Of a DNA stretch of 64,000 nucleotides, positions 1 through 63,530 are shown in pieces. This DNA comes from Faecousia sp. (GTDB taxonomy: Bacteria; Bacillota; Clostridia; Oscillospirales; Oscillospiraceae): the NCBI GenBank assembly GCA_045539075.1, contig JAZQEP010000034.1, positions 32,856-96,855 of the forward strand, in the 5' to 3' direction. The position numbers and the translations under genes are program-made. The notes under the pieces were generated by a model that ran no database searches, was not told the origin of the DNA, and was given only the letters and a program-made list of their open reading frames with translations. Position 1 is the first letter of the stretch, and each line of letters opens with the position of its first letter.

Positions 1-50
1 GACCTACTAAGTCTATGCGAAAACCGCCGGCCCCCCCTGGTGCCGGGGTT

Positions 51-2249
51 TTAGTCATTTTCGGATATTTTTAGATTTCGCAGAACTTCCATGGCGGCAG
101 GAACATCACACTGGTTATACAGATACGCGTAACGCAGCAGCGGATCGGGCACCATGTAATCATATTTGTCAAAACGAGGGGACTGGTCATCGGCCAGTAC
201 CGCCGATGGATCATCCGTATCCAGCCGCAGCGTCCTCAGCTTATGTAAGAATTTGTCCTTGGGCAGTCCTGTGGTGATTTGCAGGTAGTAAAACGATCTG
301 GTTACCGCATAGATGTCCAGTTCATCCTTCAGTCCGCAGGTCAGGAGTCTGGCAATGGTCCGGATGACCTTTGTACCGCACCAGGGCAGCAGAAGATGGG
401 TGTTTCCGTGCAGGGTGACCACATCGTTATGGATGATGCCAAGCTCTCTGGCAAGCTTTCGGGCGGCGGTCAGCGCTTCCACAGCGCCGGGTTTTAAATA
501 TGGATAGATGGTGTCCTCTGCCAGGACCTGGCGCATTCTGCTTAAGATTTCGCCGTCCACATCTCCACCGGAACCTGCCCAGTTGATCAGTTTTGACTCC
601 CTGGATTTCTCCACAAAAACCTGCTTTTTTCGGTCATCCACACTGAACACTTTCCAGGCGGAGCCAGCCAGTGTGAAGACTTCATCCGGCGTAGGGCAGC
701 GGGTGAGGGTGCCGATTCTGCCTTCTTTTGCAATGACAGTGTAGCTGTCCTCCTCACGGAAGACGGAATAGAAGGTGAAGTGATTGGTCATACCCTCCGC
801 AGCCATTCCCACAATTAAATTGCCATTTTCCAGCTGCTGAATGCAGTTTTTCCGCAGAAGATGCCGCAAAAGTGACTTATATTCCGACTGAGCTACCGTG
901 TTCGCAAAGACCGGGAGAGTAAGAACCTCCCGGGCAAGCTGGGCAGGGGATAGTTCTCCGTGGAGGAGCAGCGTACTCAATGTCTGATGAACAAGCACAC
1001 TGTACGGCCTCTGTTTCCACTCGAAGGGCTCCACCCAGCGCTTTTCGGCATAGATCTGAATGATGGCAATGGCGCGAAGCAGATCCCAGGGAAGTGCTTT
1101 CACAGATTTCAGGTCACTTTCCTCCCGAAGATCCAGGAACATCATGCGGCTGACACCTGTACGTCTGCCGGAACGGCCCAGACGCTGGACAAAACTGGAA
1201 CAGCTGTAGGGGGCGCCCAGCTGAATGGTAAAATCCAGATCGCCGATATCGATCCCCAGTTCCAGCGTCAGAGTGGCTGCAGCTACGGAAGGCGCGTTGG
1301 CTTTCTTCATGGCTTCCTCAGCTTCCTGGCGCAGAGCGGAGGAGACATTTCCGTGGTGAACATGGAAAACATCCGCATCACCCCGGATATGGGCGATGGA
1401 CCGAAGATCCGCAATGGTTAATTCCGCTTCGTTGCGGCTGTTGGTGAAAATCAAGCATTTTTTCTGATGACAGATATCGTACAGGGCGTTGCGGTAATTG
1501 CTCAGGGCTTTGTGGTATTCCGTCTGATTTCTCTGATCCGGCAGGGTAACGCAGTCGGCCAGGAGGGAAATGGTACGCTTCTGATGTCCTGTGCCCACCG
1601 CCTGGATGTTTCGCTTACTGCCGGCGTTCAGAAACCCCATGGCCGGATCGTAGTCGTGCAGTGTTGCGGACAGGCCGATACGGCGGGGAGTGCATTTGCT
1701 CAGCCTCTGCAGCCTTGTGATTTGGCACAGAACCTGCAGCCCCCGATCCGTTCCCATCAGTGCGTGAAGCTCGTCAATGACGATGTAGCGCAGGTCTGAG
1801 AAAAGCAGTTTTACATACTCCGGATGGCGGATCAGCATGGCTTCCAAGGCCTCCGGGGTGATTTGCAGGATCCCCCGGTTTACCTTGAGTGCTTTCTGCT
1901 TGACCGACTGAGAAATATCTCCGTGCCAGGGCCAGACCGGAATCTGGCGTTCCTCCAAAAGCTCTGTCAGCCGCTGGAACTGGTCATTGATCAGGGCTTT
2001 CAGAGGGCCGATATAGATAACGGCGATGGAGTGGGCTGGATCTTTTTCCAGCTGGGTCAGGATAGGGAAGAAGACTGCCTCCGTTTTGCCGGAGGCAGTG
2101 CCTGAGGCCACGATCAGATCATCTTTTGTGTCCAGAATGGCATTGCAGGCTTCCACCTGCACCTGGCGCAGATCGGTCCAACCCTTCCGGTAGATATACT
2201 GCTGAATAAATGGAGCGTAGCGCTCATATGCGGTCATAGCCATAATCAA
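51..2249 (-). CDS. SF2 DExH-box helicase (Lhr/Ski2-like); third gene of the TerB-ATPase-helicase triad (Shango SngC-like)
   Basis: 732-aa ORF. Motif I SGTASGKTEA, motif II VIDELH, motif III LSATL, motif VI QRLGRSGRR. The start region overlaps the stop of the upstream ATPase gene. TTG 2249 or ATG 2243/2237 are possible, so the exact start is uncertain. Confidence 0.85.
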   Translation of the reverse strand: MIMAMTAYERYAPFIQQYIYRKGWTDLRQVQVEACNAILDTKDDLIVASGTASGKTEAVFFPILTQLEKDPAHSIAVIYIGPLKALINDQFQRLTELLEERQIPVWPWHGDISQSVKQKALKVNRGILQITPEALEAMLIRHPEYVKLLFSDLRYIVIDELHALMGTDRGLQVLCQITRLQRLSKCTPRRIGLSATLHDYDPAMGFLNAGSKRNIQAVGTGHQKRTISLLADCVTLPDQRNQTEYHKALSNYRNALYDICHQKKCLIFTNSRNEAELTIADLRSIAHIRGDADVFHVHHGNVSSALRQEAEEAMKKANAPSVAAATLTLELGIDIGDLDFTIQLGAPYSCSSFVQRLGRSGRRTGVSRMMFLDLREESDLKSVKALPWDLLRAIAIIQIYAEKRWVEPFEWKQRPYSVLVHQTLSTLLLHGELSPAQLAREVLTLPVFANTVAQSEYKSLLRHLLRKNCIQQLENGNLIVGMAAEGMTNHFTFYSVFREEDSYTVIAKEGRIGTLTRCPTPDEVFTLAGSAWKVFSVDDRKKQVFVEKSRESKLINWAGSGGDVDGEILSRMRQVLAEDTIYPYLKPGAVEALTAARKLARELGIIHNDVVTLHGNTHLLLPWCGTKVIRTIARLLTCGLKDELDIYAVTRSFYYLQITTGLPKDKFLHKLRTLRLDTDDPSAVLADDQSPRFDKYDYMVPDPLLRYAYLYNQCDVPAAMEVLRNLKISEND

Positions 2250-3550
2250 ATGTCAAAGTCAAAGAAGGGATCGTCTTCCTTCTCTTTCTCGATGGTTACT
2301 TCATTCTCCCGGATGAAGTCCTCAAAGCTCACTTCAGGATTCTCATGGAGTGTGTTGAGCAGGCTGAGGAAGCTCTTGGTAATTTCACGGGGGGACAGAT
2401 TATTTTGACTTCCCAGGCGGTTGCTGATAAATACGATGAACTGTCCCAGCTGTTCCGGGCGGATCTGATTGTCATATCTGTGGGCAGTGCCATGGACATT
2501 GCACAGACGCTCCAGCAACAGGTAGATCTCCTCGGGTGTCAGGGGTTTCAGACTGATGACAGGGGAGGACAGGTCGCTAAAACTGCCGGAAGAGAAGGGG
2601 TTGTCCGCCAATCTGGACCGGAGGGCCTCATAGCTGTATAGTCCCCGGCGGTCATCGTAAATGAATTCGGGTGTTCCGCTGAGGAAGAAACCGATATGGG
2701 CAGCCTTACCCTGCATGGTATCGTTGAAGATGGTAAGGATCTTCTCATAGTTGGTGTTGCGGGTCTGCTTATTGGTGATCTTATAGAGATTCACACCCTC
2801 ATCCAGAAAAATGAGCATTCCCTTGTAACCGGCAAAGGTGGAGAATCTGGCAAAGAGCTTCAGAAACTCATACCAGTTGCTGTCCTCAATGATCCGGTCC
2901 ACACCCAGATCTTTCTTGGCATCGGTCTTGGTAGCATATTCTGCCCGAAGCCAGCGCAGGGCGCACTGTTTGAGATCCTCATTCTCGGTGCAGTATCCAC
3001 GCCAGTAGGCATCCATCACATGGGAAAAAGCTGACCCGTAGGAAAGTTCTGTAAGGGCATGCAAATGTTCCTGAATGCGCTTGCGGACTGCTTCGGAAAA
3101 TGCAGGGGATGCACTTTCCAATCCAGCGCTGCTTACTTCCTGGCGTACAAGTGTGATCCATCTTTCCAGAACGGATTTCAGTGCGCCGCCGTTGGGACTG
3201 GACAGGATCGCCATATTCTGGACCAATTCCCGGTAGGTAGCCAGACCTTTGCCCTTTCCGCCGATGATATTGTGGTCGGGAGACAGATCCGCGTCCAGCA
3301 CTACATAATCCCGCTCGATGGCGTTATTGCGGATCATCTGGATCATGAAGCTTTTACCGCTTCCATAGGGGCCGCAGATAAAGCGGAAGGCACCGCCGCC
3401 ATCTTCCACGGCGGTCATATCCTGCAGAAATGCGTCTACTTCCTTTTTCCGGCCCACAGCAATGTGGTTCAGGCCCACTCTGGGTACAACGCCGGAAATC
3501 AGCGCTGTCAGCAGTGCCTGGGCAACCCGGGGGTTGAGTTTTGCTGCCAT
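2246..3550 (-). CDS. P-loop ATPase (DUF2791 / BrxC-D-like ATP-binding family); second gene of the triad (SngB-like)
   Basis: 434-aa ORF. Walker A CGPYGSGKSF, Walker B MLIFLDEG. AAGGAGG RBS 7 nt before ATG 3550. Lies 11 nt downstream of the TerB gene. Confidence 0.8.
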   Translation of the reverse strand: MAAKLNPRVAQALLTALISGVVPRVGLNHIAVGRKKEVDAFLQDMTAVEDGGGAFRFICGPYGSGKSFMIQMIRNNAIERDYVVLDADLSPDHNIIGGKGKGLATYRELVQNMAILSSPNGGALKSVLERWITLVRQEVSSAGLESASPAFSEAVRKRIQEHLHALTELSYGSAFSHVMDAYWRGYCTENEDLKQCALRWLRAEYATKTDAKKDLGVDRIIEDSNWYEFLKLFARFSTFAGYKGMLIFLDEGVNLYKITNKQTRNTNYEKILTIFNDTMQGKAAHIGFFLSGTPEFIYDDRRGLYSYEALRSRLADNPFSSGSFSDLSSPVISLKPLTPEEIYLLLERLCNVHGTAHRYDNQIRPEQLGQFIVFISNRLGSQNNLSPREITKSFLSLLNTLHENPEVSFEDFIRENEVTIEKEKEDDPFFDFDI

Positions 3551-3561
3551 AGTATACCTCC

Positions 3562-5052
3562 TTATCTCAATGCATTTGTCAGTTCAGATTCGTAAAAGTC
3601 AATAATGACAGGTTTGCCGTCTCCTGTTTCGATCAGTACGTCCCCCATGAGCTCCATGGCGGTTTCGTTGATTTTGTCCAACAGGGAAGACGGCATGGTG
3701 TTTTCCTGCCGGGCGATCCGGTCAATGGTTTGAGGCACACCGGTCAGTACGGCGTGCAGAACCTTTACATGGGGCGCGCCCAGTGCTGTGATCACCTCAC
3801 CCAGCTCCGGGGAAAGAAGATCCTGGTCAAAAAGATCATCACCGGAAGCTTCAGAGGTTGTATCGGCCCCAGAAACAAAGGTTGTCGAGATGACCGGCTG
3901 TGTGGTTGCGGGAGCATTGACCACCTCTTCGCTGAATTCCACGGCGTCCGGCACATCCAGAGCGTCCCGGACCGCATCCGATTCTGCTCTGAGTTTCTCA
4001 ATTTGAGAAATATCCAGTGTAATTGCCGCGGGGGCAGGAGGCTTCTGCTGCTGTGTCATGTTTTTTCTCAGGAACTGTTCCACCATGACCCCAGTTTCCG
4101 GGTCAAAAGTTACGTCCTTCAATTTTCCGCGGTATCCCTTCATGTCCCGCAGTACATTTTCCACAAACCGCACCAATTCTGTCACATAGGCCCGGAGGGT
4201 CCTTCCGCCGGTGTAATCGATCATAGGAATGTTGTAGCTGTATGCGGATTTTTCACAGAATGCGCCCTCGTAGGGGGTGTAGGAAATGGTTTTGGCGCGA
4301 ATGGGTGCCAGGGCACTGAGTAAGCTGTTTCCGGTTTCCTTGCGTTTCAGTGCATCGCAGAGACTGAAAGATCTGGATACGGCCTCCCGGATCAACTCCT
4401 CATGTCCATCTTTCCAGAAACCGGACCGTTCCGGGGAGTAGTCGGACAGAGTCAAAATCAGACTGTAGGGAAGTTTCAGAATCCGGTCCGTCGCGTGCTG
4501 GGAAAAGAGCATATTTTGCTGGACGGGGGAAGGGGGGATAGCACTTCCCAGTGCTTCCGGCACGCGGAATTCTACACCATGCTCCATGGCAAAGTCAAAA
4601 GACCAGATGAGGAAGCGGCTGTCCATGGTGGAATACCGGCCGCGGTAGGCCTCCCACAGCTTAAGCAGCTGCAGGTAACCGTCCTCGGGGGAATCCCATC
4701 CATAGCCGCTGATTAGTTCTGTAGCGTGAAGCTGGATATATGGATAGTCTGTCTCCGGGTAGCTGCCGCCACGGACCTGTCCCCGCCAGTAAAGGTACCA
4801 GGAACGCTGGGCCTGGGACATATTGCGGTAGGTGGGGGAGAAGTGGATAAACGTGGCGTGGGTGGGGGGCGGCGCGTCCTTGGGGTAACTTTTCCGGGCA
4901 TAGGCAGCCATATCGTTTTCAAAGGCTTCAATGGTAAATATGCCGAAACGGCAGGAAGCGCGCTGGTCCTCGGACCATGGAATCTGCTGGCGTGTTTCCT
5001 CAGGACCGTCCAGTATGATTTGTGAAAAATCGGAAAACTGATAATGTTTCAT
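3562..5052 (-). CDS. TerB-N / TerB-C domain protein; first gene of the triad (SngA-like)
   Basis: The N-terminal part carries a QAQRSWYLYWRGQVRGG segment typical of TerB-N. A Thr/Asp-rich linker follows. The C-terminal LLDKINETAMELMGDVLIE segment is typical of TerB-C. ATG at 5052 is preferred over the track TTG at 5058. No clear SD. Confidence 0.75.
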   Translation of the reverse strand: MKHYQFSDFSQIILDGPEETRQQIPWSEDQRASCRFGIFTIEAFENDMAAYARKSYPKDAPPPTHATFIHFSPTYRNMSQAQRSWYLYWRGQVRGGSYPETDYPYIQLHATELISGYGWDSPEDGYLQLLKLWEAYRGRYSTMDSRFLIWSFDFAMEHGVEFRVPEALGSAIPPSPVQQNMLFSQHATDRILKLPYSLILTLSDYSPERSGFWKDGHEELIREAVSRSFSLCDALKRKETGNSLLSALAPIRAKTISYTPYEGAFCEKSAYSYNIPMIDYTGGRTLRAYVTELVRFVENVLRDMKGYRGKLKDVTFDPETGVMVEQFLRKNMTQQQKPPAPAAITLDISQIEKLRAESDAVRDALDVPDAVEFSEEVVNAPATTQPVISTTFVSGADTTSEASGDDLFDQDLLSPELGEVITALGAPHVKVLHAVLTGVPQTIDRIARQENTMPSSLLDKINETAMELMGDVLIETGDGKPVIIDFYESELTNALR

Positions 5053-5114
5053 AGGCAAATTATCTCTGGAATCAAAGTGTCATATGTGGGTAAAACTGCT
5101 TGACAGAAATATCA

Positions 5115-5219
5115 GGAAAGAAAAATGCCGGATGGAACCATTCCGGCGCAAAGAGATTATTTCTTGTGTAAACAAGTGTTTCCATGTATATATTTTAGCA
5201 TTTTGCCAGTAAAAAGCAA
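5115..5219 (-). promoter_or_regulatory. putative promoter and leader hairpin of the triad operon
   Basis: Minus strand reads TTGCTT (5214-5219), 16 nt, TGcTAAAAT (5192-5200). Downstream there is a GCCGGA/TCCGGC hairpin (5127-5147) followed by a U-run, all before the TerB start. Confidence 0.35.
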
Positions 5220-5278
5220 CCGTTGCGAGAAGAATTATCATTTCTCCGTACAATTTAACAAATTGTATTTGTAGCGCC

Positions 5279-5307
5279 TTGACAAATGAAAGATAATGGG
5301 GTATTAT
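5279..5307 (+). promoter_or_regulatory. sigma-A type promoter
   Basis: TTGACA (5279-5284), 17 nt, TATTAT (5302-5307). Confidence 0.6.
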
Positions 5308-5316
5308 CATTTTACA

Positions 5317-5425
5317 GCACATGACTGACGGAACATCGCGGGTCACCGCGGGGGAATGTGCTCGTGTTTATAGCCGACCGTCTGGGCAATTCAGTGTTGT
5401 AGCTGGATTGCTCTTTTTTATTTTT
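5317..5425 (+). promoter_or_regulatory. ZTP (ZMP/ZTP-sensing, pfl motif) riboswitch with intrinsic-terminator expression platform
   Basis: P1 is GCACAT/ATGTGC (5317-5322/5356-5361). Conserved GACUGACGGAAC lies at 5323-5334. A CGCGG/CCGCG hairpin is followed by GGGGGA. The 3' element CCGACCGUCUGGGCA lies at 5374-5388. GACGG (5327-5331) is complementary to CCGUC (5378-5382). An 11-bp terminator (5384-5394/5403-5413 plus U-run) uses the GGGCA of the aptamer. fhs is downstream. Confidence 0.8.
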
Positions 5426-5448
5426 AATCGATACTAAAGGAGTTAATT

Positions 5449-6393
5449 ATGAGCTTTGTTTATCGCGGAATCGAAGCCGAACTGGACCGTCATATTGTTT
5501 CCGACCTGGAAGTTCAGCGCCAGCTGGATCGGATCCTGGAGCAGAATCCGAAGATCCAGACTGTCACCGACCGTGCTGCCCAGCTGGGCGACGAGGTGAT
5601 TCTGGATTATGCCGGTTTCTGCGACGGTGAGCAGTTTGCCGGCGGCACTGCTGAGCGTCAGTCCCTGACCCTGGGCAGCGGTATGTTTATCCCCGGCTTT
5701 GAAGAGCAGCTGGTGGGCGCTGAAATCGGCCAGGACGTCAATGTGGATGTGACCTTCCCCGAGGCCTATCACGCTCCCAATCTGGCAGGCAAGGCAGCCC
5801 AGTTCCGCTGCAAAATTCATGAGATCCGGGTTAAGAGCACCTACGAGATGGACGACACCTTCGCCCGTGAAGTGGGCGGCTGCGAAAGCTTTCAGGAGTT
5901 CCGGGACAAGCTGCACAGATCCATGCAGGCTTATTCCGATCACCGCTCTGAGGTGGAACTGCAGGACAATCTGATGCGTAAAGCTGCCGCCACTCTGGAC
6001 TTCACCCCCAGCGATGAGCAGATGGCAGAGGCCATGGAAGATCAGATGGATAATCTGAACGCGCAGCTTGCTCAGCGGGGCGTGACCATGGAGATGTACT
6101 GCCGCTTCATGAATACCACTGAGGAGCAGCTGAAGCAGGATGCTCGTGCTGCAGCCGAGATGAGCCTGCGTACCCAGGCTGCCGTGGAGCAGATCGTCGC
6201 ACTGGAGAATCTGGTGGCTGAGGAAGACGAGATCAACCAGGCTGTTGCGCTGGTGGCCCAGCAGAACAATATGACTCTGGAACAACTGAAGCCTTATTAT
6301 GACGCGGAGTTCGAAGCTGCCATTGTCCGTCATGTGCTGACCGGCAAGGCTATGAAAGTGATTCGGGATTACGCTGTGATCACTGAGATTTAA
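5449..6393 (+). CDS. trigger-factor paralogue lacking the N-terminal ribosome-binding domain (FKBP PPIase + C-terminal chaperone domain)
   Basis: 314 aa. GDEVILDYAGFCDGEQFAGGTAERQSLTLGSGMFIPGFEEQLVG matches the Tig PPIase core. RBS is AAAGGAG. Confidence 0.75.
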   Translation: MSFVYRGIEAELDRHIVSDLEVQRQLDRILEQNPKIQTVTDRAAQLGDEVILDYAGFCDGEQFAGGTAERQSLTLGSGMFIPGFEEQLVGAEIGQDVNVDVTFPEAYHAPNLAGKAAQFRCKIHEIRVKSTYEMDDTFAREVGGCESFQEFRDKLHRSMQAYSDHRSEVELQDNLMRKAAATLDFTPSDEQMAEAMEDQMDNLNAQLAQRGVTMEMYCRFMNTTEEQLKQDARAAAEMSLRTQAAVEQIVALENLVAEEDEINQAVALVAQQNNMTLEQLKPYYDAEFEAAIVRHVLTGKAMKVIRDYAVITEI

Positions 6394-6444
6394 TCAGTCA
6401 ATGAGCCCGGCCGGAGTCCGGGAATACTATAGGAGGATATAGAT

Positions 6445-8253
6445 ATGGCAATCAATTACGTTGACGGCAAGTATGTGGACGAGAAGGGCATGGTTAAGCT
6501 GGATCCCGTCCAGTACAAGGACTGGCAGATCGCCGAGGAAGCAGAAAAGACGCTGCCCTCTGTGGATTTCTTCCGTCAGAAGCTGGGCCTGCTGGAGGAT
6601 GAGATCATCCCCTACGGCAAGACCCCCAAGATCGATTTCATCAAGGTCATGAAGCGCCTGGAGAACAAGCCCGACGGCAAGTTCATCGAGGTCACCGCAA
6701 TCACTCCCACCCCCTTTGGCGAAGGTAAATCCACTGTCTCCCTGGGCCTGATCGAGGGCCTGGGCTACATCGGCAAGAACGTGGGCGGCGCACTGCGACA
6801 GCCCTCCGGCGGCCCCACCATGAACGTCAAAGGTACTGCAGCCGGCGGCGGCAACGCCCTGCTGATGCCCATGACCGAGTTCTCTCTGGGCCCCACCGGT
6901 GATATCAACGACATCATGATCGCCCACAACCTGGCAATGGTGGCTCTGACCTCCCGTATGCAGCACGAGCGCAACAATACCGATGAGTGGCTGGCCAAGA
7001 AGGGCCTGAAGCGTCTTGATATCGACCCCAAGCGCATCGAGATGGGCTGGGTCATGGACTTCTGCGCACAGTCCCTGCGCAACATTATCATTGGTATCGG
7101 CGGCCGTCTGGACGGTTACATGATGGAATCTAAGTTCGGTATTGCTGTTGGCTCCGAGCTGATGGCCATTCTGGCTGTTGCCCGGGACCTGAAGGATCTG
7201 CGTGAGCGCATCGGCAAGATCGTCGTGGCCTACTCCAAGACCGGCGAGCCCGTTACCTGTGAAGACCTGGACGTGGCCGGCGCTATGACCGCCTGGATGC
7301 GCAATACCATCAACCCCACCATGTGCTACTCCGTTGAGCATCAGCCCGTTCTGATCCATGCCGGCCCCTTCGCCAACATCGCCATCGGCCAGTCCTCCGT
7401 CATTGCAGACCGTCTGGCTCTGAAGCTCTTTGATTACCATGTTACCGAGTCCGGCTTTGCCGCCGACATCGGCTTTGAGAAATTCTGGAATGTCAAGACC
7501 CGACTGTCCGGCCTGACTCCCAACGTCTCCGTGCTGGTCGCCACTGTCCGCGCTCTGAAGATGCACGGCGGCGGCCCCGCTGTGAAGCCCGGTTCCCCTC
7601 TGCCCAAGGAGTACACCGAGGAGAACCTGGAGCTGCTGGAGAAGGGTACCTGCAACCTGTTCCACCATGTTAACACCATCAAGAAGTCCGGCATCAACCC
7701 CGTGGTGTGCATCAACCGCTTCTACACCGATACCGACGCCGAGATCGCACTGCTGAAGAAGCTGTGCGCCGAGCGCGGTGTCCGCTGCGCCGAGAGCAAT
7801 CACTGGCGTTACGGCGGCGAGGGTGCTGCTGAGCTGGCCCGTGTGGTGGTTGAGGCCTGTGAGGATCCCGTGGATGTGAAGTTCCTGTATGATCTGGAGA
7901 TGCCTCTGCGCCAGCGCGTGGAGCTGATTGCCAAGGAAGTCTACGGTGCTGACGGTGTGGACTGGGCTCCCCTGGCAACCGAGAAGGCCAAGCGCTTCGA
8001 GTCCGATCCCAAGTACGCCGACTACTGCACCATGATGGTCAAGACACACCTGTCCCTCAGCGACGACCCCACCAAGAAGGGTGTGCCCTCCGGCTGGCGT
8101 CTGTTCGTTCGTGACATTCTGGAGTACGGCGGCGCCAAGTTCCTGTGTCCCATGGCCGGCACCATCTCCATGATGCCCGGTACCGCAGCTGACCCTGCTT
8201 ACCGCCGTGTGGACGTGGACACCGAAACCCGTAAGGTCTCCGGCCTGTTCTAA
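6445..8253 (+). CDS. fhs: formate--tetrahydrofolate ligase
   Basis: 602 aa. [12 protein letters not shown]-loop and overall Fhs-like sequence. TAGGAGG RBS. About 25-aa N-terminal extension relative to typical Fhs. Confidence 0.95.
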
Positions 8254-8263
8254 TTCATAACGT

Positions 8264-8296
8264 AAAAGCACGCAGGTTTTTACCTGCGTGCTTTTT
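8264..8296 (+). terminator. rho-independent terminator of fhs
   Basis: GCACGCAGG / CCTGCGTGC stem followed by TTTTT. Confidence 0.85.
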
Positions 8297-8358
8297 CGTA
8301 TTAGCGTACATTTTTGCTCCGCCAATAAGAAATGCCGCCCGAAGGCGGCATTTCTTAT

Positions 8359-8447
8359 TGGCGGAGAGTGTGAGATTCGAACTCACGGTGGGTTGCCCCA
8401 TCACCAGTTTTCAAGACTGGCTCCTTAAACCGCTCGGACAACTCTCC
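8359..8447 (-). tRNA. tRNA-Ser (anticodon UGA)
   Basis: Reverse complement is GGAGAGTTGTCCGAGCGG...GGTGAGTTCGAATCTCAC ACTCTCC G CCA. Anticodon loop CTTGAAA, long variable arm, encoded CCA. TTGACT-17-TATGAT promoter upstream. A 16-bp palindromic hairpin (8324-8359) lies downstream. Confidence 0.9.
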
Positions 8448-8732
8448 ATATGTACATGGAATCATATCATTTTGATCATAAAAAGTCAAGGGTATTCATA
8501 TTGCTGCAAAGGTGACTCTAATTTCATGGCATACTATTATATCTTAGTATTTAGAACCGTCCCTGCCTTTTGGATAATGCGGTTATTGCGGAATCGATTG
8601 TTCCGGCAGTGTGAACACAAAGCCGGAGCAGTCAGAACGGAAGCTTATATCCAGGTGTCCTTTTAGAAGAAATATAATACACAATATTTACCGGTGCCGC
8701 AGCTTGCAGCACCGGTATTTTTGTGCAGTTGT

Positions 8733-9944
8733 TTATGGATGTGCCAACGGAAGTTGAACTAAGAAAGTATTATATCCACCCTTGCTCTCAGCCCAGATTT
8801 TCCCTTTATGGGCTTCCACCACTGACTGGGCGATAGATAGCCCCAGACCATAGCTGCCATCCATGACTCTTGCTTTGTCCGCCCGATAGAAGCGTTTGAA
8901 GATATTCTTCAGATCCTCTTTGGAGATAGGATCTCCGGGACTGGTAACGGACAGAATGCAACTGCGCCCGGACTGATCCAAGTTTACATTAACCGCGCCA
9001 TTTGGACTGGAATACTTCAGTGCATTGTCCAGCAGTACATCCAGTACCTGATACAGATGTTGTTCACTACCATACAGGCTGATTCCATCCGGAACGGTGC
9101 ATCTAAGTTCCATTCCCTTTTCTTCATAGAGAAGCTGAAAGGACAATACCGCGTCTTGGACCAACTGGCTGAAATCCACTGTCTCAAACTTCATTTTCAG
9201 CGTTCCGTTATCCACCCTCGCCATTTCCAGCATATTCTCCACCAGGGAGCGCATCTGGTAGGTCATGGAAAGAATATTTTTGGAAAAGGTTCTGCGGTCT
9301 GCTTCCGGGGTGTCCTCATTTCCCAAAAGCTCCGCATTCGCCATAATGACGGAAAGCGGTGTTTTCAGTTCATGGGAAGCATCTGCCACAAACTGCCGTT
9401 GCTGATCCCAGGCTTGTTCCACCGGCCTGATGACCCAACGGGACAGAAGAATACTGATACCCAGAAACGGAATCGATGCTGACAGAAAAATCAGCAGGCA
9501 GGAAAGAACCATATTTCGCAGCGTAGTGGCTTCCGTTGCAGTATCGGAAAACACGATGGTGTACCCCATAGGGGCCTTGTTCTTCAGGTAACGGAGGTTG
9601 TAGTCATCCAACTTTCCAATTTCGGATTCACTGGACAGTGCCGCATTGGCGATTTCCAGAATATAGTCCTGATCGGACAGATCGAAATAACCACCGCTCG
9701 CTCCAAGCAGCTGCCCTTGCCGACCGATCTGAACGGTGAAGAACGGAAGCCGGACTCTGTCTGAGCCTTTGCCCAGATTGCCTTTCTGAAAAGGACTGGC
9801 AGCGATAGCACGCATCATGTTGATGCTTTGATTTTGCATACTCTGAGCAGTGAAGTGGATCACAACACCAAGGATAATTCCCAGCATCAGCATAACAATG
9901 GCCATGATGACGCATACAAATTTAATCCGCAGTTTTTTGATCAA
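8733..9944 (-). CDS. sensor histidine kinase (HisKA + HATPase_c)
   Basis: H-box ASHELKTPLS, N-box LLDNALKYS, G-box GLGLSIAQ. Two TM segments. TTG start overlaps the stop of the response regulator. Confidence 0.9.
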   Translation of the reverse strand: MIKKLRIKFVCVIMAIVMLMLGIILGVVIHFTAQSMQNQSINMMRAIAASPFQKGNLGKGSDRVRLPFFTVQIGRQGQLLGASGGYFDLSDQDYILEIANAALSSESEIGKLDDYNLRYLKNKAPMGYTIVFSDTATEATTLRNMVLSCLLIFLSASIPFLGISILLSRWVIRPVEQAWDQQRQFVADASHELKTPLSVIMANAELLGNEDTPEADRRTFSKNILSMTYQMRSLVENMLEMARVDNGTLKMKFETVDFSQLVQDAVLSFQLLYEEKGMELRCTVPDGISLYGSEQHLYQVLDVLLDNALKYSSPNGAVNVNLDQSGRSCILSVTSPGDPISKEDLKNIFKRFYRADKARVMDGSYGLGLSIAQSVVEAHKGKIWAESKGGYNTFLVQLPLAHP

Positions 9945-10615
9945 TCTTCCTTCACCTCCAGATGATAGCCGAGACCCCGGATCGATGCGATTCGGACATT
10001 GGATGCGATACTGCTGAGCTTCTTTCGCAGGATCGCCACATAGACCTCTACATGGTTCTCTACCGCATTGGATTCCAGCCCCCAGATATGGGACAGAATA
10101 GCAGATTTAGAAAGGTTTCGTTTGCCGGACTGGAGCAGCAGGCGCATGACATCGAACTCCTTTGCGGAAAGCCGGACAGCTTTTCCATCGCAGAGCAAGG
10201 TGCCGGTGCCAAGATCCAGGATCGTGTTGCCGAACACCATCTCATTAACTTGTCCTGCCTGACGGCGCAGCAGGGCATTGATGCTGGCAAGCAATTCTCC
10301 AGAGTCAAAGGGCTTGGTCAGATAATAGTCGGCACCGGCATTGAGTCCGGCGATACGGTCCTGCACATCACTTCTGGCAGTCAGCATCAAAATCGGGGTG
10401 TTACAGCGTGCTCTGCGAACCTGCCTGGCCACCTCGTAACCATCCATTTTGGGCATCATTACATCCAGAATTAACAAATCGTAAATTCCCAGCTCCGCAT
10501 ATTCTTTGCCGGATTCCCCGTCATAGACACACTCTACTTGAAAGCCCTTCCGTTCCAGCATGGACTTGATGGAATTACAGAGCATTTTTTCATCTTCGAT
10601 AACCAATATCTTCAT
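9941..10615 (-). CDS. OmpR/PhoB-family response regulator
   Basis: Receiver domain (LLILDVMMPKMDG) plus winged-helix C-terminus. GGAGG RBS. Confidence 0.92.
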   Translation of the reverse strand: MKILVIEDEKMLCNSIKSMLERKGFQVECVYDGESGKEYAELGIYDLLILDVMMPKMDGYEVARQVRRARCNTPILMLTARSDVQDRIAGLNAGADYYLTKPFDSGELLASINALLRRQAGQVNEMVFGNTILDLGTGTLLCDGKAVRLSAKEFDVMRLLLQSGKRNLSKSAILSHIWGLESNAVENHVEVYVAILRKKLSSIASNVRIASIRGLGYHLEVKED

Positions 10616-10848: not shown

Positions 10849-12570
10849 ATGAATCATAAGAAACACCAGGAAACCGGTACTGACTTAACCGTTTCCAAAG
10901 ATGAGGCCTTATTTGAAGCCCTGGGAAAATCAAAAAAGAAGAAAAAGAAGAAGATTATCCGTACAATCATCAGTATTGTCCTGATTTTGGCAATCGTTTT
11001 GATATCCGGTGTGAATATCCTGCAGCGCCGGGTAAGACAGGAATTTGCCATGGGTGATGTAGAGGTAATCTCTTTTGAAGTTACCACAGGTACCATCAGT
11101 ACTGTGGTTTCAGGCAGCGGAACCCTGCAAAATGTGGATACGGAAACAGTTGTGCTCCCCAGCGGTGTGGAATTGACGGACACCCTAGTTAGCTATGGTG
11201 ATGCAGTGGAAGAGGGGGAGCTGATCGCTACTGTGGATATGGGTACGGTACGAAGCGCTATGTCCGAGCTGCAGGCAACCATTGAGGATCTGGATGAGCA
11301 GATCGCCGATGCAGAAGGTGATCAGGTGAGTTCCTATATCAAAGCCGGTGTTTCCGGCAGAGTGAAAATCCTCTATGCCCAAAAGGATACGGCGGTAGCC
11401 GATGCTATGGTTGAGCATGGTGCGGTGGCTGTGATTTCTCTGGACGGTTTCATGGCAGTAGATATTCAAACCGATGCACTTACCGTCGGCGACTGTGTGA
11501 CGGTGATCCGGGCAGACGGCAGCGAGATCTCCGGCACAGTAGAATATGCGGCCGGAGGAACGGCCACGGTCCTGGTAACCGATAACGGACCAAAGTATGA
11601 TGAAGAAGTGTCCATACAGACTGAAGACGGTACTGGGGTCGGTTCCGGCAAGCTCTATATCCATAATCCGCTTTCTGTTACCGGCTATGCGGGTACTGTC
11701 AGTTACGTCAATGCCAGGGAAAATCAGAAGGTCTATGCATCTACCACGCTCTATACGCTTAACAATACGGCTTCCAGTGCAAATTATGATGCCCTGTTGA
11801 GATCCCGGAAGGAAGCAGAGGAATCCCTGCTGGAGCTGTTGCAGATTCAGCGAAACGGCGGAATTGCCGCTCCCATTTCCGGGAGCATCGCATCTGCGGA
11901 AAGTACGAGTGAAGAAGAAACCCTGGTTGCAACCATTTCTCCGGATCAATATATGTCCGTGACCATCACAGTGGACGAAGCGGACATCCTTTCTCTGGAG
12001 GTCGGACAGCAGGGCGCTGTGACAGTCAGCTCCGTCAGTGAGGATGCTTTCTCGGGAACGGTCACGGAAATTGACAGGACCGGTGCAAACAGCGCCTATA
12101 CTGCTGTGATCCTTCTGCAAAAACAGGAAGGTATGCTTCCGGGTATGACTGCCTCCGTGGATGTACGGATCGAGGGCGTGGATGATGCCATGATCATTCC
12201 TGTGGAAGCTCTGCACCGTACCTCAAACGGTGCCTATGTTTATACCACCTATGATGAGCAAATGCAGCAGTATGGAGGTCGGGTGGATGTGGTTACCGGA
12301 CTGTCCAACAACAACTATGTGGAGATTAAATCCGGCCTGAATGTGGGCGATACGGTTTACTACACCGAGGAGCAGACCTTTGGCAATATGTTTGGCAACC
12401 GGGGCAACATGGGCGGTAATATTCCCGGCGGAAACGTTCCCGGTTTTGGCGGCAATATACCCAATATGGGAAATGGGGACAGCAAAAATGAGGGCGGAGA
12501 AAACCGTCCCGTTTTTGGCGACGGAAACTTGCCGGGTCAGGGAACCAGAAACCGGCCCAACGGCGGTTAA
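10849..12570 (+). CDS. HlyD/MFP-family efflux adaptor with Gly/Asn-rich C-terminal tail
   Basis: ATG 10849 with AAAGGAG RBS is preferred over the track start 10744. N-terminal TM segment, lipoyl/beta-barrel-like regions. Tail is [25 protein letters not shown]. Confidence 0.8.
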
Positions 12571-12581
12571 GAGGTAGGCCC

Positions 12582-13253
12582 ATGATCGACATCAAAGACT
12601 TGTGCAAGGTTTATCTCGTGGGAGAAGAACGGGTAAAGGCGCTGGATCATGCCACAATGCATATTTATCCCCATGAGTTCGTCAGCATCATTGGACCCTC
12701 CGGTTCCGGCAAATCCACCCTGATGAATATCATTGGCTGCCTGGATGTTGCCGATGCCGGAACCTATTATCTGGACGGTCTGCCCATTGAGGAATACTCC
12801 GAAAATCAGCTTGCCCGAATTCGTAATCAGAAGATTGGCTTTGTGTTTCAGAGCTTCAATCTGATTCCCAAGCTCAGCGCAGAAGAAAATGTAGAGCTGC
12901 CGCTGATCTATCAGAAGGTTCCAAGATCGGAGCGGCAAAAGAGAGTCAAAGCCGCACTGGAACGGGTAGGCCTCTCGAATCGGGCAAAGCATCTGCCAAC
13001 AGAGTTGTCCGGCGGTCAGCAGCAGCGCATTGCCATTGCCCGTGCGCTGGTGACGAATCCAAGCCTGATCCTGGCAGACGAGCCTACCGGAAACTTAGAC
13101 TCCAAAACATCTCAGGAGATTATGGATATCTTCCATGAGCTTCACGCACAGGGTAATACCATTGTCCTGATTACCCATGATAATGATGTTGCAAAACAGG
13201 CATCCCGGGCGATCCGCATTCTGGACGGACAGATTACGGAGGTGGCACTATGA
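12582..13253 (+). CDS. ABC transporter ATP-binding protein (MacB/LolD-type)
   Basis: Walker [10 protein letters not shown], signature [15 protein letters not shown], Walker [12 protein letters not shown]. Confidence 0.95.
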
Positions 13254-14440
13254 TTATTTCCCTGAAAATGGCACTTCGTTCCATCAGTTCCAACAAAATG
13301 CGTGCGATGCTGACTATGCTGGGCATTATCATCGGCGTTATGGCTCTGGTGGTGCTGGTAAGCCTTGTGAGCGGTGCCACAACGTCTGTAACCGATGCGG
13401 TAAACGCACTGGGAAACAGCATGCTCACGGTAACCATTGCAGATGACAAAGGCTATCCTGTGACACTGGATACACTGGATGAATGGATGGATAAGGAGGA
13501 GCTTGGCTTGCTTGCACCGCAAATCAGCGATACGCTGACCGCCTCCGGAAGAGAGGGAAGCGCAAGCTTATCTGTCTATGGAACAACTCCAGCCTATTAT
13601 GATATTCAGGGCTTGCAGCTTGTCATGGGCCGCTGGCTGAAAAGGGCGGACATTGAAAACCACAGCTATGTTTGTGTCATTAACGAAACTGCTGCGGAGG
13701 AACTGATCGGCTATGTGGACTGCATTGGGGAGGCCATTTCCATCAATTCCGTAAAATATACCATTGCCGGCGTTTTGAGCGACGATGAAGACTCCCTGAC
13801 CGCAGCTTTTTCCTCCGGAAGCATGGTGGTGTATCTTCCGTACACTTCCCTTGTCCGGCTCTCTGCCACTGCGCTGTCCGAAGTCACGACCTTCTACGTC
13901 AGCGCACCGGAGGGCAGCACTGTGGAATCGACGGAAGCGGCAATTACAGAAATCCTGATGGATCGCTTCGACGATGACGAGGATGCCTTTGAGGTATCTA
14001 CACAGGATGTTCTGGAGGATACAATGAGTTCCATCACCTCCGTTCTGACCATTCTTCTGGGCGGTATTGCGGCCATCTCCTTGGTTGTAGGCGGTATCGG
14101 CATTATGAATATCATGCTGGTCACGGTTACGGAACGAACCAGAGAAATTGGTATCCGAAAGGCCATTGGTGCCAGCCGGGGTACCATTCTGCTCCAGTTT
14201 CTGATGGAGGCAGTGGTGCTTTGCATGATGGGCTGTGGCCTGGGCATTTTCCTGAGCTGGTCCATCCTGCAGATCGTCAATACAGTGGTGATCAGTCTTG
14301 ATATGGTGTTCCATCTTAACGGAGGTGTCGTTCTGATTGCTGTGGGTTTCTGTTTTGTGATCGGTGTGGTATTCGGACTGTATCCTGCCAACAAAGCAGC
14401 CAAAATGAAGCCCATTGACGCACTGCATTACGGAGGTTGA
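13250..14440 (+). CDS. ABC transporter permease (FtsX/MacB-type, with extracytoplasmic domain)
   Basis: 396 aa, 4 TM segments, FtsX-like C-terminus. 4-nt overlap with the ATPase gene. Confidence 0.9.
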
Positions 14441-14443
14441 CCC

Positions 14444-16609
14444 ATGGAAAAAAAGCATAAAAAACAAGCGAAAAAATACTTATCATGGGCGTTGATCGCT
14501 GCGATTACCGCAACCCTTGCGTTTTTGCCCATGATCGCAGCAAGAGAAGACCCGGAAACCGGCCCCCAGGCAAGTATTCTGTCCGCTGATGCGGAAAACA
14601 GAGAAATCTCCACAAATATTTTGGGCGGCGGCACATTAACTGCGGGAGATGCTGCACAGATCACCATCCCTGCTGCTGTGAAGATAAAAGAGTATCTGGT
14701 CAGCAACGGTGATATGGTAACAGATGGGCAGCCCGTTGCATTGGCAGATCGGGTCAGCATCATGTCAGCCATTACCCAGGTGCAGGAAACCATGGATTAT
14801 TTGCAAGAGCAGATGGATGATGTAAGCGGTGATACTGCCCCGGATACAATAACCGCTACGGCAGGCGGAACCGTGAAGATTATCTATGGAACCGAAGGAG
14901 AAAGTGTGCAGGATGTTATTCTCCGGGACGGAGCATTGGCAGTTCTCTCTCTGGACGGCCTTATGGCGGTTCAAATTCCGTGCAGCACGGACTTGTCCGG
15001 CGGGGATTCCGTTTGCATTACGCTGGCAGACGGTACGGAAGTAACGGGCAAAGTGGAATCCAATCTGGAAGGCGTTCTGACTGTTACCGTTGTGGACGAA
15101 GGCTATGCTGTCGGCGAAACAGTCAGCATATCCACAACGGATGGTGCGCGGATTAGCTCCGGAGCACTGTACATCCACAGTCAGTGGAATGTGGTGGCCT
15201 ATTCCGGCAGGATCTCACGGGTTCGTGTCAGTGAGGGCGACGTGGTAAAGGCAGGAAAAACACTCTTTGATTTGAAGGATACCGGACATACTGCGGAATT
15301 TGAAGCCCTTGCCCGTCAGCATCGGGAATATGAAGCGCTGATGTTGGAGCTGTTCAAAATGTATCAGAGTGAAACGGTCAAGGCAACCCAGGGCGGCATT
15401 GTCACGGGTGTGGATGAAAGCGGAGCTTATATGCTCTCAACCAACGTAGTAGGATGGACCCTTTCTATGCTTGTCAATGCCCCCAATGGTGATGACGAAA
15501 CCAGTTATATCAACTATATCGGTCAGGTGGCACAGGTTGGCATCGATGGACTGATCCTGAAAATGAACCCCCAGAGCCTTGCCATTACTGACTATAAGGA
15601 GCTGTCCGGTGTTCCTCTGGATACTTCCTTGATGACAGAAGATGCAATTTATACGGCCAGCGTCCCGGTATATGAACTATCCGGTGGAGCGTGGGTGCAG
15701 ATAGAAGCTGCATCCATTGCGGCAGGAGATATTCTGCTGTTCGCCGGAGATAGTGCAGGAAATTTAGTGTGGGTAGTTCGTGTTGCGAGAGGAACGGTTC
15801 AGCCGGAAATCCCAGAGGAATCTGGGGCAACAGAACCTTCCGAGCCGACAGATTCTTCAGATCCAACTCAGCCAATTGATCCCACTGCCCCCAAAGATCC
15901 AGAAAGCCCGGATGACCCTTCTGAACCCACAGACTCAACCGATCCGTCCACTCCTACAGATCCATCAGCACCTACAGAACCCACGCAGCCGGGTGATAAC
16001 AGACCTCAAAGCGGCGGTAATATGCCCAGCTTCGGCGGAGGTGTTGTTCAAGAAAAAACCTTCGAGGTTTACGGATTGGATACGGTAACCATTGCTTCTG
16101 TAATTCCACAGGAGCAGGTGTTTGTTCAAATCATCGTGGATGAATTGGATGTCAACCGAATTCACATAGGTCAGACAGCTGTAGTAACTGTGGATGCCTT
16201 ACCGGGCGAGTTTTTTACCGGCACGGTAACTTCCGTTTCCGACATCGGCGAGAGTGAAGGCGGAAACAGCAAATTTACGGTTGAAGTAACTTTGAAAAAA
16301 GAAACGAATATGCTCCCAGGCATGAATGCTGCTGTTTCTCTTACCATCGAAACAGCACAAACATCCCTCTGCATACCTGTTGCTGCACTGATCGAAGACG
16401 GAACGCAAACTTATGTGTACACCGGATATGATGAAAAAGCAGGAGAATTCGTGAATCCGGTTGCGGTTACGGTGGGTGTTTCCGACGGAGAATATGTTCA
16501 GATTATTTCCGGAATCGCCCATGGACAGACTGTCTACTACCCCTACTATGATACCCTTGTTATTACCGACGCACCGGAAAAGATTGGCGGATTCCGGTTC
16601 AGGCAATAA
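14444..16609 (+). CDS. second HlyD/MFP-family adaptor with Pro/Thr/Asp/Ser-rich linker
   Basis: 721 aa. N-terminal TM segment, and MFP-like segments related to the 10849-12570 product. Confidence 0.8.
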   Translation: MEKKHKKQAKKYLSWALIAAITATLAFLPMIAAREDPETGPQASILSADAENREISTNILGGGTLTAGDAAQITIPAAVKIKEYLVSNGDMVTDGQPVALADRVSIMSAITQVQETMDYLQEQMDDVSGDTAPDTITATAGGTVKIIYGTEGESVQDVILRDGALAVLSLDGLMAVQIPCSTDLSGGDSVCITLADGTEVTGKVESNLEGVLTVTVVDEGYAVGETVSISTTDGARISSGALYIHSQWNVVAYSGRISRVRVSEGDVVKAGKTLFDLKDTGHTAEFEALARQHREYEALMLELFKMYQSETVKATQGGIVTGVDESGAYMLSTNVVGWTLSMLVNAPNGDDETSYINYIGQVAQVGIDGLILKMNPQSLAITDYKELSGVPLDTSLMTEDAIYTASVPVYELSGGAWVQIEAASIAAGDILLFAGDSAGNLVWVVRVARGTVQPEIPEESGATEPSEPTDSSDPTQPIDPTAPKDPESPDDPSEPTDSTDPSTPTDPSAPTEPTQPGDNRPQSGGNMPSFGGGVVQEKTFEVYGLDTVTIASVIPQEQVFVQIIVDELDVNRIHIGQTAVVTVDALPGEFFTGTVTSVSDIGESEGGNSKFTVEVTLKKETNMLPGMNAAVSLTIETAQTSLCIPVAALIEDGTQTYVYTGYDEKAGEFVNPVAVTVGVSDGEYVQIISGIAHGQTVYYPYYDTLVITDAPEKIGGFRFRQ
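15803..15993 (+). repeat. in-frame low-complexity degenerate tandem repeat (PxEPTDSxDP-like) inside the adaptor gene
   Basis: PEIPEESGATEPSEPTDSSDPTQPIDPTAPKDPESPDDPSEPTDSTDPSTPTDPSAPTEPTQP. DNA units such as gaaccttccgagccgacagattc and gacccttctgaacccacagactc recur. Confidence 0.7.
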
Positions 16610-23517: not shown

Positions 23518-23605
23518 GGGCGAGTGGTGGAATTGGTAGACTCGCTAGATTCAGGTTCTAGTGTTCATTGCGGACGTGCGGGTTCAAGTCCCGCCTCGCC
23601 CACCA
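23518..23605 (+). tRNA. tRNA-Leu (anticodon CAG), copy 1
   Basis: GGGCGAGTGGTGGAATTGGTAGAC..., anticodon loop TTCAGGT, long variable arm, GGTTCAAGTCC T-loop, encoded CCA. Confidence 0.9.
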
Positions 23606-23633: not shown

Positions 23634-23721
23634 GGGCGAGTGGTGGAATTGGTAGACTCGCTAGATTCAGGTTCTAGTGTTCACTGCGGACGTGCGGGTT
23701 CAAGTCCCGCCTCGCCCACCA
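23634..23721 (+). tRNA. tRNA-Leu (anticodon CAG), copy 2
   Basis: Identical to copy 1 except one base in the variable arm (cattg vs cactg). Confidence 0.9.
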
Positions 23722-62414: not shown

Positions 62415-63530
62415 ATGCAGGAAAAAATCCTTCGTCCCCGGGCGGAAGAACGCTATCGGGAGGAATTGGAAGCGCTGAAGCAATGGGATGCAGGCAATAA
62501 AAAGCCTGCAAACTGGATGCTGTCTCCCCGGACAGTGCGCATGTTTATTCTGGGTTCTCAGAAGCCCATTGTACATAATGGAAAACAAATCCTCATCGGT
62601 AAAAAGTACCTGGGTAACGATGCTTTGGTGGAGCGCTGCATTATCACTCTGGCGGGAAACCGGGGCTTGATGCTGGTGGGCGAGCCCGGTACCGCGAAAA
62701 CCATGCTCTCGGAGCTTCTCAGCGCGGCAATCAGCGGCTGCAGCACCAATACGGTCCAGGGAACCGCGGGTACTACCGAGGATATGATCAAATACAGCTG
62801 GAACTATGCCATGCTTCTGGCCAATGGCCCCAGCCGCGAAGCGCTGGTTCCCAGCCCCCTGTATGTGGGTATGGAGAAGGGAATCATCACACGTTTTGAG
62901 GAGATCACCCGTACCCCTGCGGAGGTTCAGGACAGTCTGATCAGTGTCCTCAGCGATAAAATCATGATGATTCCCGAACTGGGAGATGAGGGCCTTCTCT
63001 TTGCTCGGCCCGGATTCAATGTGATTGGCACTGCCAATACCCGGGACAAGGGTGTCAATGAGATGTCCAGCGCACTAAAACGCCGCTTCAATTTTGAAAC
63101 GGTTCAGCCCGTCCGGGATGTGGCGCTGGAAAAGCAGATCATTCTCAGCGAGGTGGGATCCCTGGCGATGGACGCCGGTATCGACCAGCCCCTGGACCGG
63201 GATGCTGCCCTGCTTCTGGCAACCACCTACCATGAGCTTCGGGAGGGTATCTCCTCAGAAGGCATGCGGATCGAAAAGCCTGCCGCTGTAATGAGTACCG
63301 CAGAGGCCATCTCTGTCTATTTCCAGACATTGATGAGTGCCTGGTATTACGGTGATGGGAAGATGGACGAGCATACCCTGGTTGAGAATCTGGTTGGCGC
63401 GGTTGCAAAGGAGTCCGGAGAGGACCTGAATAAAATTTCCAACTATTTCTCCACCGTTGTCCGGGAGAAATCCAGACGGGAGGGCGGCGCATGGACACGA
63501 TATTACGAGGCAAGAAGCCTTCTGAAATAA
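62415..63530 (+). CDS. MoxR-like AAA+ ATPase (AAA_5 type)
   Basis: Walker A GEPGTAKT, Walker B-like GIITRFEE, sensor GTANTRD, and ALKRRF. TTTACA-16-TGgTACAAT promoter. GAGGTG RBS. Confidence 0.85.
   Translation: MQEKILRPRAEERYREELEALKQWDAGNKKPANWMLSPRTVRMFILGSQKPIVHNGKQILIGKKYLGNDALVERCIITLAGNRGLMLVGEPGTAKTMLSELLSAAISGCSTNTVQGTAGTTEDMIKYSWNYAMLLANGPSREALVPSPLYVGMEKGIITRFEEITRTPAEVQDSLISVLSDKIMMIPELGDEGLLFARPGFNVIGTANTRDKGVNEMSSALKRRFNFETVQPVRDVALEKQIILSEVGSLAMDAGIDQPLDRDAALLLATTYHELREGISSEGMRIEKPAAVMSTAEAISVYFQTLMSAWYYGDGKMDEHTLVENLVGAVAKESGEDLNKISNYFSTVVREKSRREGGAWTRYYEARSLLK

Follow-up and report, generated by a model that had tools for sequence, protein, structure and literature searches.

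The stretch of DNA analysed here, which we call the window, comprises 64,000 nucleotides of a contig from Faecousia sp. (JAZQEP010000034.1), and at its left edge lie three adjacent, co-directional genes on the minus strand. In the order of transcription their products are a protein with TerB_N and TerB_C domains (SngA), a BrxD-like P-loop ATPase (SngB) and a superfamily 2 (SF2) DExH helicase (SngC). The genes are preceded by a predicted promoter and a leader of about 130 nt, end at a terminator held in common with a convergent glycoside hydrolase (GH3) gene, and are divergent from an operon controlled by a ZTP riboswitch. It is very probable that they (51-5058, minus strand) constitute an intact and, to all appearances, expressed operon of the Shango (SngABC) phage defence system that arrived at this site as a self-contained cassette. 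The locus is a further example of an already described system and presents nothing categorically new.

The identity of the operon is carried by profile searches. The PADLOC models for Shango are the best match of each protein, with E-values of 1.5e-64 for SngA (beginning at residue 56 and at position 93 of the 528 in the profile), 6.7e-167 for SngB (residues 3-429 on profile positions 4-434 of 439) and 2.4e-227 for SngC (residues 5-725 on profile positions 3-719 of 720). In Pfam, SngA matches TerB_N at 9.7e-23 (81 bits, cut-off 25), over profile positions 46-205 only, and TerB_C at 3.5e-17 (63 bits, cut-off 26); SngB matches BrxC_BrxD (PF10923) at 1.5e-149; and SngC matches DEAD at 5.7e-27 and Helicase_C at 1.5e-15, together with a weak, sub-threshold match to WH_Lhr. 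A first-pass annotation, which had read the stretch without any database, proposed a Shango-type triad from a handful of motifs and suggested searches with profile hidden Markov models. All of its motifs are present in the translations, namely QRSWYLYWR and a TerB_C-like tail in SngA (which carries LLDKINETAMELMGDVLIE), intact Walker A and Walker B motifs in SngB, and the SF2 set GTASGKTEA, DELH, SAT and QRLGRSGRR in SngC; all five Pfam families are significant, including the two TerB domains on which the proposal depended. The order A-B-C and the common orientation are canonical, and this order recurs in L001, L002, L004-L011 and L092-L096. Since the Sng profiles rank first, the Pfam domains fit, and the equivalogs for BREX and Lhr remain below their cut-offs, the triad is a Shango system by every measure available at the sequence level.

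Shango was named by Millman et al. 2022 and Johnson et al. 2023. In these two studies the systems of Escherichia coli and Pseudomonas aeruginosa (PA14) were put through plaque and liquid assays, and they reduce the efficiency of plating about 10-100-fold; the first-pass annotation was right on the name and on the two hosts. It also knew of no characterised example from Clostridia, which is accurate for experiments; annotated copies do exist there, such as that on a Clostridium estertheticum plasmid described below. A triad of TerB-N/TerB-C protein, DUF2791 ATPase and Lhr-like helicase had been predicted computationally before Shango was described (Anantharaman, Iyer and Aravind 2012), and its domain architecture is identical to that of the window locus, whereas the membrane linkage predicted there is not evident in the window, where SngA has no transmembrane (TM) segment. 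With the systems of E. coli and P. aeruginosa PA14 the window locus shares the three proteins, their order and orientation and the tight coupling of the genes. It differs from them in that its SngA is minimal and soluble, entering the family profile only at the late position given above; in that its host is a Clostridia-type gut bacterium, the system being known here from sequence alone; in that it is a lone cassette beside metabolic genes and not part of a defence hotspot like cDHS1; and in that it carries a conserved hairpin in its leader.

Both SngB and SngC have homologues in type 2/6 BREX, and their second-best, distant PADLOC matches are to BrxD (1.6e-49) and BrxHI (5.6e-129), while the Pfam label of SngB is itself BrxC_BrxD. 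These matches could be taken to mean that the pair is an orphan remnant of a BREX system which has come to lie beside a TerB protein by chance, and this we regard as the least probable of all the readings weighed here. The Sng profiles outscore those of BREX by 554 to 167 bits for SngB and by 755 to 430 bits for SngC, and on the NCBIfam model BREX_BrxD SngB scores 168 bits against a cut-off of 350, so that the BREX equivalog level is not reached. The locus lacks PglZ, the PglX methyltransferase and other BREX genes; no Pgl or Brx family occurs among all 13 PADLOC families matched by the other 52 window open reading frames (ORFs); the left flank in the closely related contig L004 consists of GH3, MatE and FtsX genes only; and the three-gene unit recurs in L001, L002, L094, L095 and L096.

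It is similarly hard to credit that the genes form a housekeeping DNA-repair operon, in which an Lhr/MrfA-like helicase is accompanied by an accessory ATPase, and have no part in defence. The solved structures closest to the SngC motor core are indeed those of the repair helicases Lhr and MrfA (YprA) (5v9x/7lhl and 6znp, ~1e-27), the weak WH_Lhr match points the same way, and the locus lies among metabolic genes with a host-like GC content. However, it is the helicase core alone that aligns with Lhr and MrfA, and SngC stands apart from them in its operon partners, its distribution and its profile scores. SngC, with its 755 bits on the SngC profile, falls far below the NCBIfam cut-offs for Lhr-type helicases (233 of 850 bits for TIGR04121, 191 of 849 for PRK13767 and 90 of 1496 for PRK09751, Lhr itself), and it is coupled to TerB_N/TerB_C and BrxD-type proteins, which define Shango. 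A triad core and syntenic across the whole family, with a helicase orthologous to housekeeping Lhr, had been named at the outset as what would speak against Shango; what we find is a triad missing from about 30 related ZTP/fhs loci, with one site actually empty. The literature places SngC with BrxHI, DruE and DpdJ in a single immune helicase clade.

Reading of both gene junctions bears out the tight coupling that had been described, with 11 nt (3551-3561) between sngA and sngB and an overlap of four nucleotides (TTGA, 2249-2246) between the sngB stop and the sngC start. The strong ribosome-binding site reported for sngB is likewise real: a perfect AAGGAGG stands six nt ahead of the ATG at 3550 and runs into the sngA stop codon (TAA, 3564-3562). 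For sngA, the absence of a canonical Shine-Dalgarno sequence holds in the window, and the reading frame stands as annotated, but the start that was assigned to it, the ATG at 5052, is less sure. The true start may be the TTG at 5058, because the codon at the same position is ATG in contig L093 and GTG in contig L092; in L093 a GGAG lies 8 nt upstream of that ATG. The features of the locus are collected in Table 1.

Table 1. Features of the Shango locus and its borders (window positions; a dot marks features without strand).
Feature	Position	Strand	Basis or remarks
GH3 glycoside-hydrolase gene, 3' end	1..10	+	Convergent; stop codon 8-10; left flank, not part of Shango
Cassette	20..5278	.	Present in the window and L004-L011, replaced by 123 bp in L013; blastn comparison of L013 with L004 and with the window
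Bidirectional intrinsic terminator common to sngC and GH3	24..48	.	GC-rich hairpin with A-/T-runs on both sides; terminator scan
sngC	51..2249	-	SF2 DExH helicase, Lhr/BrxHI type; start TTG 2249 or ATG 2243
sngB	2246..3550	-	BrxD-like P-loop ATPase; Walker A GPYGSGKS, Walker B LIFLDE
Shine-Dalgarno sequence AAGGAGG of sngB	3557..3563	-	Sequence reading; overlaps sngA stop codon
sngA	3562..5058	-	Soluble TerB_N + TerB_C protein; start TTG 5058 or ATG 5052
Leader stem-loop	5115..5147	-	GCCGGA...UCCGGC (5147-5127), then AUUUUUCUUUCC (5126-5115); terminator-like
sngA promoter	5192..5219	-	-35 TTGCTT (5219-5214), 16-nt spacer, extended -10 TGnTAAAAT (5200-5192); sequence reading
Right flank	5279..5413	+	Divergent promoter 5279-5307, ZTP riboswitch 5311-5394, terminator 5384-5413; not part of Shango

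The window SngA has the shortest architecture among its relatives, consisting of one trimmed TerB_N domain, a disordered linker rich in Thr and Asp (about residues 366-420) and a TerB_C domain, without any hydrophobic segment. A search of 1.84 billion representative sequences returned 2083 family members at E <= 1e-3, of which 246 reach E <= 1e-30. Among the 150 best relatives the majority have N-terminal extensions, which in those sampled are either a TM2 domain or two to three copies of TerB_N. Many of the proteins P0134-P0166 are built in one of these ways, and they reach lengths of up to 1100-1490 aa. The TM2-anchored and multi-TerB_N variants (L001, L002, L095 and P0134-P0166) belong to the same operon, with SngB and SngC proteins 55-60% identical to those of the window, and their SngA proteins share the TerB_N core and the TerB_C tail with the window protein; they differ from it in the N-terminal TM2 domain or TM helices, or the two to three TerB_N copies, of which the window SngA has none. 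The N-terminal part of SngA is, on this comparison, a variable module. An AlphaFold2 model of the window protein has a predicted local distance difference test (pLDDT) score of 78.5, with residues 370-406 below 50 and both the linker and the first 27 residues disordered; it derives from a shallow alignment of 12 sequences, profile iteration having added only two. A Foldseek search of this model against the PDB gave no significant neighbour (best E 0.41), and weak local matches to winged-helix domains of the LysR type, some 70 residues long, were not used as evidence.

A protein in which neither the N-terminal TM2 domain nor the additional TerB_N modules of its closest relatives are present and some 45 positions of the TerB_N profile are missing, whose gene lacks a canonical Shine-Dalgarno sequence and whose leader contains a terminator-like hairpin, could be seen as the mark of a decaying or inactive relic, the short sngA being a truncated gene left by an insertion or deletion event. 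We think this very unlikely. Proteins of the same short form (495-498 aa) are kept in separate lineages at 93%, 70% and 55% identity, for which reason the short SngA is no accident of the window genome, and further SngA proteins without TM segments, of about 520-530 aa, exist as well. Every ATPase and helicase motif checked is intact. In comparison with L004 the ratio of nonsynonymous to synonymous substitution rates (dN/dS) is 0.066 for SngB, 0.076 for SngC and 0.22 for SngA, beside 0.064 for Fhs and 0.13 for the trigger-factor-like protein of the right flank, values that indicate purifying selection on the Sng genes. Within SngA the linker (residues 366-420) evolves neutrally, with an omega of ~1.2, whereas the first 60 codons show a dN of 0 with 8 synonymous changes.

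The segment 10-56 (minus strand), which contains the terminator at the left end of the cassette, folds at -18.8 kcal/mol, and on the right the operon abuts a ZTP-riboswitch/fhs locus, as had been reported: the riboswitch is recognised at 58 bits on the plus strand and controls two genes, one for a trigger-factor-like FKBP protein (5449-6393) and the other fhs (6445-8253). Eight metagenome contigs (L004-L011) have this locus at about 95% nucleotide identity. Window positions 1-8490 align to L004 at 95%, and in that contig sngC is separated by 39 nt from the end of a Glyco_hydro_3 gene for a protein of 782 aa, which is followed, further left, by MatE and an FtsX-domain protein, with no further defence genes. 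The first-pass annotation had supposed that the island might continue left of position 1, and the convergent GH3 gene and the MatE and FtsX genes of L004 show otherwise.

One related metagenome contig, L013, presents an empty site, in which only 123 bp separate the GH3 gene (94% identical in amino acids and 87% in nucleotides) from the ZTP riboswitch, with the trigger-factor-like gene behind it. Its homology to the window stops 9 nt past the GH3 stop codon and resumes exactly at 5279, where the ZTP promoter has its -35 hexamer; relative to L013, window positions ~20-5278 are a 5.26-kb insertion consisting of terminator, three genes, leader and promoter. At 31 related trigger-factor-like/fhs loci of at least 6 kb, with Fhs proteins 86-92% identical where these are on the contig, no Sng genes were found within up to 10 kb. 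The possibility that the region upstream of ZTP/fhs is a defence hotspot was considered and rejected, other lineages having a variety of metabolic or regulatory genes there (GH2, LysR, ACS/CODH, oxidoreductase or ECF transporter genes) and none for defence.

Elsewhere the relatives of these genes keep quite different company. The nearest other SngC proteins (55-60% identity), those of Ca. Anaerobutyricum avicola and Ca. Limiplasma, have unrelated gene neighbourhoods, and one of them adjoins a SIR2-domain protein. In this Ca. Limiplasma contig (L002) a 1210-aa SIR2_2 protein (12221-15853, plus strand) comes directly after SngC and a VWA protein lies upstream, an arrangement that resembles a defence island, unlike the window. 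SngB-like genes occur on 691 plasmids, 541 of which are conjugative; none was found in the phage collection. An annotated Shango triad is present on the 344-kb Clostridium estertheticum plasmid pCF002-344 (L096, 4181-14006), where a relaxase gene, an ABC-ATPase gene and fragments of IS110 transposase lie on its flanks. From the empty site, the 31 Sng-free loci, the unrelated contexts and the plasmid copies we infer that Shango is here an accessory and horizontally mobile unit. Between the window and L004 the synonymous divergence (dS) amounts to 0.12-0.19 in the Sng genes and is similar in the flanks (0.15 for Fhs); the cassette is therefore older than the separation of these strains.

Several observations weigh against the view that an intact defence cassette was acquired at this site. 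The eight contigs L004-L011, with their 100% occupancy, were retrieved through SngA itself, and they do not constitute a survey of presence within the species. Pfam profiling of 29 window ORFs turned up neither an integrase nor a transposase, the remaining ORFs being judged by reading only; the cassette ends have neither target-site duplications nor terminal inverted repeats nor flanking repeats; and the GC content of the cassette equals that of the rest of the window. Because an integrase, a target-site duplication and a GC deviation are all lacking, the apparent insertion could equally be a deletion that took place in the lineage of L013. In a different lineage, the short contig L095 carries a diverged Shango (SngA 41% identical and with an N-terminal TM2 domain, SngB 57% identical), and its positions 1-256, compared with window positions 5225-5362, place that operon divergent to the same ZTP boundary, and the homology stops at the -35 hexamer there too. 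Such an arrangement agrees with an ancestral presence of greater age, followed by losses. Since the L095 Shango abuts the identical boundary, there has been either repeated use of the site or an old insertion that was lost in L013-like lineages, and we cannot choose between the two. As to function, phage protection has been assayed for the Shango systems of E. coli and P. aeruginosa only and for no Firmicutes copy, the literature searched contains no mechanistic paper on Shango, and no solved structure was found that matches SngA or SngB by sequence. An intact Shango operon that came as a self-contained cassette remains, with these points counted, the reading we favour.

The cassette stands alone in the window. 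It had been noted that no integrase, transposase or second defence gene accompanies it, and the Pfam profiling described above and a PADLOC search of the 52 other window ORFs agree, the latter finding no second defence system and only generic matches (ABC-ATPase, methyltransferase, radical-SAM and FtsX). A lone Shango cassette is common, Paenibacillus providing another case. Three PADLOC 'mad' matches were examined as a possible MADS-like system and rejected: mad3 and mad8 come from one and the same MacB-type ABC ATPase, and the mad2 match is a generic SAM methyltransferase 13 kb away. The MacB-type ATPase, which also produces spurious matches to AriA and AbiLi (its mad3 match has an E-value of 1.9e-34), is grouped with an FtsX permease and a pair of HlyD-like proteins, and a two-component system adjoins them (12582-16609, plus strand, and 8733-10615, minus strand).

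The promoter and the hairpin in the leader of sngA, both located by the first-pass annotation, are kept in L093, whose SngA is 55% identical to that of the window. The promoter elements there have equal spacing (TTGCTT, 16 nt, TGTTACAAT), and the stem and U-tract of the hairpin are preserved while the loop and most other leader sequence have diverged. The hairpin, which comes some 40 nt after the predicted start of transcription, folds at -11.6 kcal/mol, with values of -10 to -12 kcal/mol in three lineages. We suggest that it is a putative promoter-proximal intrinsic attenuator that limits expression of the operon. A conserved leader peptide was sought by eye and rejected, as the ORFs of the window and of L093 cross the hairpin in different frames.

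The stem-loop could, on the other hand, be no conditional attenuator at all, serving as a 5' stabilising hairpin on a transcript begun at a second promoter, as a palindromic operator for a repressor or as a constitutive partial terminator without signal input, and we give this alternative serious weight, at somewhat below an even chance. The stem is a perfect DNA palindrome (CCGGA-N-TCCGG), and immediately before it comes the end of a second promoter-like site (5184-5156), whose -10 element (AATAAT, 5161-5156) is kept in L093. No convincing antiterminator pairing was found in the leader, the fold of which as a whole has a z-score of -1.5, and Rfam gave no family on the minus strand of 5053-5192, where the matches at E up to 10 were sub-threshold chance matches of <23 bits. 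A simple terminator scan did not call the hairpin, and there is no covariation in it, because the stem sequence is identical across the lineages. What argues for an attenuator is that the U-tract directly after the stem is conserved jointly with it, an intrinsic-terminator signature, the loop being free to vary.

A more far-reaching proposal would combine the leader with the recurrence of the insertion boundary. On that proposal the leader would be a conditional attenuator with read-through triggered by infection or stress, and the ZTP/fhs boundary a recurrent landing site at which divergent Shango alleles, with soluble or TM2-anchored SngA, replace one another. We consider this combination unlikely; if it were true, Shango expression would be inducible and membrane anchoring of the TerB protein would be dispensable for the system.

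The history and working of the locus may be pictured as follows. A cassette of ~5.26 kb, self-contained in that it brought promoter, leader and bidirectional terminator along, very probably entered between the GH3 gene and the ZTP/fhs operon and was then inherited vertically under purifying selection. Judging from sequence and conservation, transcription would start from the extended -10 sigma-A promoter, and the stem-loop and U-tract in the 130-nt leader would stop part of the transcripts, so as to keep basal expression low. Translation would begin at a weak initiation site for sngA and at a strong Shine-Dalgarno sequence for sngB, and that of sngC would presumably be coupled through the overlapping stop and start codons. 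By homology, SngB (a BrxD-type ATPase) and SngC (an Lhr/BrxHI-type 3'-5' SF2 motor) may form an ATP-driven module acting on DNA, the likeness of SngC to Lhr and MrfA suggesting 3'-5' translocation on single-stranded nucleic acid, and SngA may be the sensor or adaptor that licenses this module upon infection. Because no nuclease, toxin or TM domain is recognisable in the three proteins, protection would be expected to come from motor-driven interference with phage DNA replication or processing, and not from degradation of DNA or disruption of the membrane; we offer this DNA-motor model tentatively and with considerable reserve.

Later literature still calls the role of TerB unclear. BnzA of Bunzi and DinB of Dionysus also have a TerB-family domain, for which a role in membrane surveillance has been proposed, but the partners of these proteins are pore-forming or TM proteins and not an ATPase-helicase pair, and the domain is TerB proper and not the combination of TerB_N and TerB_C. 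The idea of membrane surveillance fits the TM2-anchored relatives of SngA better than the soluble protein of the window.

Some further features of the window lie outside the Shango operon. The first gene under the ZTP riboswitch (5449-6393, plus strand) encodes a trigger-factor-like protein with FKBP_C and Trigger_C domains, without the ribosome-binding N-domain; it matches phrog_26774 and is 47-66% identical across the related loci, compared with 86-92% for the adjacent Fhs. Beyond fhs, L004 is ~1.9 kb longer than the window (L004 4592-6559 against window 8490-8653), the additional segment, which contains an alanine dehydrogenase gene and a 99-aa ORF, being situated between tRNA-Ser(tga) (window 8359-8447) and a histidine kinase gene; its absence from the window is a strain-level insertion or deletion beside a tRNA. 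Two tRNA-Leu(cag) genes are arranged in tandem 29 nt apart (23518-23605 and 23634-23721, plus strand). Near the right edge, an AAA_5 (MoxR-like) ATPase gene (62415-63530, plus strand; 5.6e-35) precedes a gene for a DUF5682 protein (7e-21) that begins at 63491 and is still open where the window ends. The edge at 64000 truncates the pair, which has no PADLOC match and may begin a multi-gene cluster of the MoxR/vWA type.

The unusual points of this Shango locus reduce to three: the lone cassette, which is common, the conserved leader hairpin, which is modestly interesting, and the minimal SngA. The hairpin offers a concrete hypothesis for how a potentially costly helicase/ATPase system might be restrained. 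The window copy is a compact test object of ~5.3 kb, complete with native promoter and leader, from an anaerobic Firmicute, and comparison of its soluble SngA with the TM2-anchored forms could show whether membrane association matters to Shango.

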